From NCBI RefSeq assembly GCF_045037415.1, contig NZ_CP173438.1: a DNA stretch of 64,000 nt. One strand, 5' to 3'. The position numbers and the translations under genes are program-made. The DNA is from Escherichia coli. Its GTDB lineage: Bacteria; Pseudomonadota; Gammaproteobacteria; Enterobacterales; Enterobacteriaceae. Shown here piece by piece: positions 4,321-4,905 of this stretch. Numbering within the stretch: position 1 is the stretch's first letter; each line of letters starts with the position of its first letter. The notes under the pieces were generated by a model. It saw only the letters and a program-made list of their open reading frames with translations, was not told where the DNA came from and did no database searches.

Positions 4321-4533
4321 GAAAATACCTTAGTGGGTAAACGCTTACATTCTTTCAGTGTTACGGAAAACGCCCGTTGGTTCAAGGGGCGGCGTGTTTT
4401 CATTGTGGGAATGTGAGCCAAACGCAAATAAGTAAGACAAAAAAAGAGATTGCAAACCTTTGGTTACACTTTGCGAAACGCTGTTGCGATTGACCGCTGG
4501 TGGCGTTTGGCTTCAGGTTGCTAAAGTGGTGAT

Positions 4534-4616
4534 CCCAGAGGTATTGATAGGTGAAGTCAACTTCGGGTTGAGCACATGAATTACACCAGCCTGCGCAGAT
4601 GCGCAGGTTTTTTTTT
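4534..4616 (+). ncRNA. omrB: OmrB small regulatory RNA (OmpR-regulated, Hfq-dependent)
   Basis: Starts CCCAGAGGTATTGATAGGTGAAGTCAACTTCGGG and ends in the hairpin CTGCGCAGATGCGCAGG plus T9; matches my recall of OmrB. Confidence 0.85.
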
Positions 4617-4730
4617 GCCGGTCATCAATCTGTAACAGTAACCGACAATTTACACACCTCGTTGCATTTCCCTTCATTCCTTTGCGTTTTCTCGCTGGCG
4701 AAGAGTCGTCGTGCAGACCACAATCAAGAT

Positions 4731-4818
4731 CCCAGAGGTATTGATTGGTGAGATTATTCGGTACGCTCTTCGTACCCTGTCTCTTGCACCAACCTGCGCG
4801 GATGCGCAGGTTTTTTTT
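4731..4818 (+). ncRNA. omrA: OmrA small regulatory RNA (OmpR-regulated, Hfq-dependent)
   Basis: Starts CCCAGAGGTATTGATTGGTGAGATTATTCGG and ends in the hairpin CTGCGCGGATGCGCAGG plus T8; shares 5' and 3' ends with OmrB. Confidence 0.85.
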
Positions 4819-4905
4819 CGCACCTAATTTACTGTCGCTCGCGTTCTTTATCTCGTGTAATCTCCCTCCATTCGCTTTTACTGAATCAGAGCAAAGGGAG
4901 TTGGA

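Follow-up and report, generated by a model that had tools for sequence, protein, structure and literature searches.

The spacer between galR and aas in this Escherichia coli chromosome carries omrB and omrA, paralogous genes for two trans-acting small RNAs (omrB at 4534-4616, omrA at 4731-4818; Table 1), a reading to which we assign a probability of about 97%. All positions refer to the window, the whole stretch of 64,000 nucleotides that was analysed. The pair found here is already known and ordinary: both genes are present and intact, their mechanism was established earlier, and nothing about them is new. Their importance beyond correct annotation is limited, the pair being a textbook case of duplicated sRNAs with a common seed and a diverged promoter and central region. 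The RefSeq annotation of strain SK1144 (NZ_AP018784.2, 1622-2206), with which 801 bases around the spacer share 100% identity, contains no feature between galR and aas, whereas omrA and omrB are annotated in K-12; a scan that recognises the two genes therefore fills a routine annotation gap.

Table 1 Features of the galR-aas spacer and its flanking genes, in window coordinates.
Feature	Position	Strand	Description	Basis
galR CDS	3289..4320	-	left spacer boundary, transcribed divergently; start codon complement 4318-4320	ORF list and RefSeq annotation of SK1144
OmpR-type 20-bp box CAAACCTTTGGTTACACTTT	4453..4472	+	-81 to -62 of omrB	best weight-matrix hit; kept across Enterobacteriaceae omrB-type promoters
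Conserved block CTGTTGCGATTG	4481..4492	+	-53 to -42 of omrB	near-invariant among omrB-type and single-copy promoters
omrB -10 element TAAAGT	4522..4527	+	T at -12; -12 to -7 of start 4534	read from sequence
omrB	4534..4616	+	83 nt here; seed nt 1-20 = 4534-4553; terminator hairpin 4588-4609; T-run 4608-4616	RF00079, K-12 alignment, terminator scan
Conserved block TGTAACAG	4631..4638	+	-100 to -93 of omrA	invariant in six omrA-type promoters
Conserved block GTTGCATTT	4661..4669	+	-70 to -62 of omrA	omrA-type promoter alignment
Conserved block TCATTCCTTTGCGTTTTC	4674..4691	+	-57 to -40 of omrA	omrA-type promoter alignment
omrA -10 element CACAAT	4719..4724	+	C at -12	read from sequence; CCACAATCA kept in omrA-type promoters
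omrA	4731..4818	+	88 nt; seed nt 1-20 = 4731-4750; central hairpin 4760-4776; terminator hairpin 4791-4812; T-run 4811-4818	RF00079, K-12 alignment, terminator scan
aas CDS	4906..7065	+	right spacer boundary, ATG at 4906	ORF list and RefSeq annotation

A covariance-model scan identified both genes over their full length: omrB matched the Rfam OmrA-B family (RF00079) with 86.1 bits at 4534-4615 and omrA with 96.6 bits at 4731-4818, each on the + strand and across model positions 1-87 of 87. Both scores are more than twice the curated gathering score of 40 bits. A preliminary description of this DNA had named an OmrB/OmrA pair of roughly 85-nt RNAs, and the scan agrees with it on both counts, omrB being 83 nt long here, against 82 nt in K-12, and omrA 88 nt. 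Across the window Rfam returned no match beyond these two, and none to MicF or RybB. A permissive rescan of the spacer brought up Leu leader (23-28 bits), SgrS and TeloSII ncR49, all far below their gathering scores, and we regard these as terminator-driven or chance matches.

OmrA and OmrB can be told apart by several characters. OmrA is 88 nt long, with a central GGUACG...CGUACC hairpin and a promoter bearing C at -12, and OmrB is 82 nt long, with a central CAAC...GUUG hairpin, T at -12 and galR as its neighbour. By these characters, the K-12 alignment, the folds and the -10 elements assign the copy adjoining galR to omrB and the copy adjoining aas to omrA. The galR-aas intergenic region spans exactly 4321-4905, and the genes are arranged within it head-to-tail on the + strand, each served by a separate promoter and intrinsic terminator. 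This galR/aas neighbourhood is the arrangement of K-12 and of other Enterobacteriaceae. The site given beforehand, 4321-4905, is thus the entire spacer, the genes themselves being smaller, and the order given there, OmrB and then OmrA on the + strand, is that of the Rfam matches and the K-12 alignment.

The two copies share their ends and differ in between, as the same description had held. The 5'-terminal seed CCCAGAGGUAUUGAU is exact at the transcript starts 4534 and 4731, and the window of 64 kb has two exact + strand copies of the 15-mer CCCAGAGGTATTGAT, one at 4534-4548 and the other at 4731-4745; no further match to it was found in the window at up to two mismatches (chance expectation 0.06). 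A repeat finder delimited a 5' repeat of 24 nt (4531-4554 and 4728-4751, 96% identical, spacing 197) and a 3' repeat of 38 nt (4581-4618 and 4784-4821, 89% identical, spacing 203), while the centres of the two copies are not alignable. Each copy ends in the conserved UUnCACC followed by a rho-independent terminator hairpin and 3' U-tail: the terminator scan found G+C-rich hairpins with T-runs at 4588-4609 (9 T) and 4791-4812 (8 T), and placed the U-tailed intrinsic terminators of the spacer on the + strand only.

Folding is consistent with this architecture (z-scores of -3.1 for omrB and -2.7 for omrA): in both RNAs the 5' end stays free and is followed by a central hairpin and the terminator. 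The opposite strand has equally good z-scores, and the strand is therefore fixed by the U-tails, the model matches and the K-12 annotation rather than by folding energy. The minimum-free-energy fold of OmrB has an outer pairing other than the GGUG/CACC helix of the Rfam consensus.

Aligned with K-12 MG1655, the spacer has 3 differences in 585 nt: C/T at 4390, T/C at 4404 and one extra T at 4608-4616 (9 T vs 8 T). OmrA is 100% identical to K-12 omrA (b4444, 88 nt), and OmrB is identical to K-12 omrB (b4445, 82 nt) except for the extra T in its terminator tail. Both promoters are unchanged from -125 to -1, and the substitutions at 4390 and 4404 correspond to -144 and -130 of omrB, beyond the fragment from -114 to +50, which is enough for activation by phosphorylated OmpR (OmpR-P) in vitro. 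The genes had been called apparently intact, which is justified because none of the 3 differences falls within a promoter or an sRNA body. No IS or other insertion is present in the spacer (4321-4905), as judged from the sequence and the K-12 alignment. A 10-nt perfect inverted repeat at 4416-4425 and 4503-4512, which brackets the omrB upstream region, was treated as chance because its left arm is not kept even in E. albertii.

Of 5426 complete E. coli genomes, 5405 have the locus at a coverage of at least 80%, with identity of at least 99% in 5248 of the matches. About 20 of the 5426 genomes lack a full-length match. One interruption was seen in strain 300709 (NZ_CP025903.1, a human stool isolate; locus L128, 3468-5019), which has an IS3-family element between omrB and omrA. 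Its breakpoint lies at about -62 of omrA, equivalent to window position ~4668, and the OmpR-activation region is therefore severed from the omrA core promoter in that strain.

Upstream of omrB, a weight matrix for OmpR placed the 20-bp box CAAACCTTTGGTTACACTTT in the top 0.015% of all 20-mers of the window. This matrix is crude and porin-derived: it was built from six contiguous 20-bp sites (F1-F3 of ompF and C1-C3 of ompC) and used against a background of all window 20-mers, after exact copies of ompF F1 and ompC C1 had been found in the K-12 regulatory regions. The box also carries a GTTACA resembling the RstA consensus, and probably corresponds to box B2 of a recent description of these promoters (PMC13425233). 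The block CTGTTGCGATTG is probably box B1 of the same work, an assignment made by us. Counted from a +1 at 4534, T-75 and A-68 of the published mutants become t4459 and a4466, both inside CAAACCTTTGGTTACACTTT; since they land on a T and an A, the omrB start at 4534 is confirmed. Mutation of these two bases abolishes activation by RstA and cuts activation by OmpR from 81-fold to 3.3-fold (PMC13425233), and published experiments show that omrB can additionally be activated by RstA supplied in multicopy. The T at -12 of omrB has been reported in a review (PMC12692685).

The omrA promoter presents a different picture. A search for OmpR boxes upstream of each gene had been suggested as a check; omrB has a clear one, but upstream of omrA the porin-derived matrix built from ompF and ompC sites gave only weak matches at the ~1% level and no canonical box. 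One of these weak matches, 4622-4641, contains TGTAACAG. As the matrix matches are weak, OmpR control of omrA rests on published experiments: OmpR-P directly activates an omrA fragment from -114 to +50 in vitro, and truncation to -60 leads to loss of activation (PMC5175337). The omrA promoter of the window is identical to the K-12 fragment activated in this way. Lying within the OmpR-required region from -114 to -60, TGTAACAG is a candidate for a non-canonical OmpR half-site. Four conserved omrA-specific regions were reported in 2026, and specific regulators have already been suggested as a possibility (PMC13425233). Going by conservation, omrA might use a non-canonical OmpR site together with a site for an omrA-specific regulator, by way of TGTAACAG, GTTGCATTT and TCATTCCTTTGCGTTTTC, a proposal we consider tentative and rather less probable than not; if true, this would be a property of E. 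coli generally and not of this window. The C at -12 of omrA is a determinant of sigma-S dependence (PMC12692685). A simple scan of the spacer for the sigma-70 consensus found no promoter, which is expected because these promoters are activator- or sigma-S-dependent and have poor -35 elements.

The regulation and action of the two RNAs are well described. Phosphorylated OmpR activates both promoters, and OmrA and OmrB repress ompR-envZ, which produces a negative feedback (PMC5175337). Both RNAs bind Hfq, and their single-stranded 5' end base-pairs with ompT, cirA, ompR and other mRNAs at the translation-initiation region, as compensatory mutations prove; repression needs Hfq and RNase E (PMC2588501). 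Targets established by published experiments include ompT, cirA, fecA, fepA, csgD, flhD and ompR, which are reached through the invariant 5' end (nt 1 to ~20); pairing of this end prevents translation, and decay of the mRNA by way of RNase E follows. The divergent centres give each paralogue some targets that the other lacks, for example btuB for OmrA. The OmpR regulation, Hfq dependence and repression of outer-membrane protein mRNAs attributed to the pair at the outset have accordingly been published for these same sequences (PMC5175337, PMC2588501, PMC12692685).

Duplex calculations agree with this body of work. Nucleotides 1-14 of the OmrA found here form a duplex of -16.3 kcal/mol with GCGAACCUUUGGGA, which occupies positions -23 to -10 in the ompR leader of K-12 and overlaps the Shine-Dalgarno sequence; shuffled seeds pair with the leader as well as the real seed does in 3.6% of cases. 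The computed duplex agrees with the compensatory-mutation data (PMC2588501). Duplexes between the full-length sRNA and the ompR leader ran end-to-end and were meaningless, because the calculation ignores intramolecular structure; the seed-restricted result was used instead. We infer that omrB and omrA would be expressed and act in this particular strain as they do in K-12.

A search for the 15-mer in 100,044 species genomes was followed by Rfam on 19 Enterobacterales loci, which gave 26 OmrA-B matches. Most of the 120 15-mer matches listed are single and lie outside Enterobacterales; we consider them chance, several hundred being expected in 298 Gb by our estimate. Two copies were found in 8 species (Citrobacter, E. 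albertii, Enterobacter cloacae, Kosakonia, Pluralibacter, Serratia grimesii, Edwardsiella and Pantoea stewartii) and a single copy in 10 others of the 19 loci. The remaining one, L022, gave no RF00079 match, its 15-mer lying 17 nt from the stored locus end. In Pantoea stewartii the copies (locus L031, 2747-2822 and 4789-4879) are ~2 kb apart, compared with ~200 nt elsewhere.

An alignment of 28 copies from 19 enterobacterial genomes shows what is retained: nt 1-15 and 17-20 are invariant, the module of UUnCACC, terminator and U8 is conserved, and the centre varies in both sequence and length. The terminator stem is 100% paired in the 28 copies and three of its pairs change on both sides, giving the variants CCUGCGC/GCGCAGG, CCUACGC/GCGUAGG, CCCACGC/GCGUGGG and CCUGCGU/ACGCAGG. 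Its covariation score was reached by 0 of 500 shuffles, and slid controls all scored far lower. The GGUG/CACC helix of the Rfam consensus never varies, so covariation is uninformative on that helix.

Promoters also fall into two types. In a promoter alignment the omrB type has the conserved blocks AACCTTTGGTTACACTTTGCG and CTGTTGCGATTG, and the omrA type has TGTAACAG, GTTGCAyTT, TCATTCCTTTGCGTTTTC and CCACAATCAAG; these type-specific blocks agree with the boxes described in 2026 (PMC13425233). The two upstream regions of the window nevertheless still line up when shifted by 198 nt, with 43 of 100 positions in common against a background of 25 +/- 4.4, a value that a fraction of 8e-5 of control positions reaches. 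The ancestral duplication therefore included the promoter. Species with a single copy have been described as always retaining the omrB promoter (PMC13425233), and Siccibacter colletis is an apparent exception to this rule. Its single Omr gene (locus L081, 4050-4445, - strand) combines an omrA-type promoter with an OmrA-type body: the promoter has the TGTAACAG box and the -10 sequence CCACAATCA with C at -12, and is 74% identical to PomrA and 60% to PomrB. Neither an omrB gene nor a remnant of the omrB promoter was found between this gene and galR.

Other accounts of the spacer have to be set against the assignment to omrB and omrA. One or both copies could be silent relics in this strain, recognisable but neither transcribed nor functional. 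The simple sigma-70 scan found no consensus promoter, the OmrB tail is one T longer than in K-12, and the IS3-family element that cuts the omrA promoter in strain 300709 demonstrates that the locus can be lost. However, the promoters (-125 to -1) and RNA bodies of the window are base-for-base those of K-12, where expression and function have been demonstrated, and its own spacer is free of insertions. Hfq binds 3' U-tails, and a tail of 9 rather than 8 U should weaken neither the terminator nor Hfq binding. Silent relics are therefore very unlikely here.

The repeated hairpins and T-runs might alternatively belong to the flanking genes, merely as terminators or repetitive extragenic elements, with the 15-mer a coincidence, since a strong terminator-like hairpin does close each copy and it is hairpins that drive the sub-threshold Leu leader matches (23-28 bits). 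Yet transcription of galR runs away from the spacer and leaves no upstream gene to be terminated on the + strand. The 15-mer occurs twice where 0.06 occurrences are expected, and in 28 copies across Enterobacterales neither its sequence nor its distance to the terminator changes. These seed statistics and this conservation, together with the full-length RF00079 scores of more than twice the gathering score, have already refuted this account, and its probability is negligible. Just as improbable is that the spacer encodes small proteins, with coding sequence overlapping the apparent RNA genes. ORFs of 20-78 aa, called mechanically, do occur here on either strand (an ATG ORF of 50 aa at 4599-4751 and a - strand ORF of 54 aa at 4513-4677 are examples), but they cross terminators and promoters, and none is annotated in K-12 or SK1144. 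The RNA centres of different genera differ by indels that preserve no reading frame, and conservation falls on seed and terminator, as in an RNA, rather than on codons. No result spoke against the assignment to paralogous sRNA genes, which is the reading we retain.

Elsewhere, the window departs from the K-12 gene order after amiC (31841-33184), in the region 33200-64000. The metZWV tRNA genes are replaced at 33385-38671 by genes for a BglG-type antiterminator, a PTS EIIBC component, an aminotransferase and a 2-hydroxyacid dehydrogenase, and no tRNA gene was found in the 64-kb window. Next, on the - strand, comes a type VI secretion cluster encoding TssJ, TssG, TssF, PAAR, TssA/VasJ, TssM, two VgrG, a DUF4123 adaptor and a Tle1-like phospholipase effector. 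Its tssM (IcmF) gene is apparently split by an IS21-family element (window 48102-54338): the N-terminal part is an ORF at 52398-54338 that covers positions 2-102 of an IcmF-related profile, the C-terminal part is an ORF at 48102-49904 that covers profile positions 142-306 together with the helical and C2 domains, and IstA (50716-52257) and IstB (49955-50704) lie between the two. With tssM split in this way, this secretion system is probably non-functional.

MicF, like the Omr pair, is also activated by OmpR. Both MicF and RybB are likewise trans-acting and Hfq-dependent, with a 5' seed that acts near the translation-initiation regions of outer-membrane protein mRNAs (PMC2588501 and general knowledge). 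They differ from OmrA and OmrB in belonging to unrelated sequences and families, and in being single genes rather than a tandem paralogous pair. Much closer are the single "OmrAB" genes or chimaeras of Erwinia, Dickeya, Lelliottia and Superficieibacter, which have the same invariant 5' seed, terminator module and neighbourhood. These Enterobacterales have one gene, in several cases with an omrB-type promoter in front of an OmrA-type body (also PMC13425233), whereas the window has both genes. Closest of all are OmrA (RygA, b4444) and OmrB (RygB, b4445) of K-12 MG1655, which lie in the same aas-galR spacer in the same order and orientation, with the same C at -12 of omrA, T at -12 of omrB and T-75/A-68 box. 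Only three single-base differences separate the window's pair from that of K-12, and a functional difference between them is not expected.
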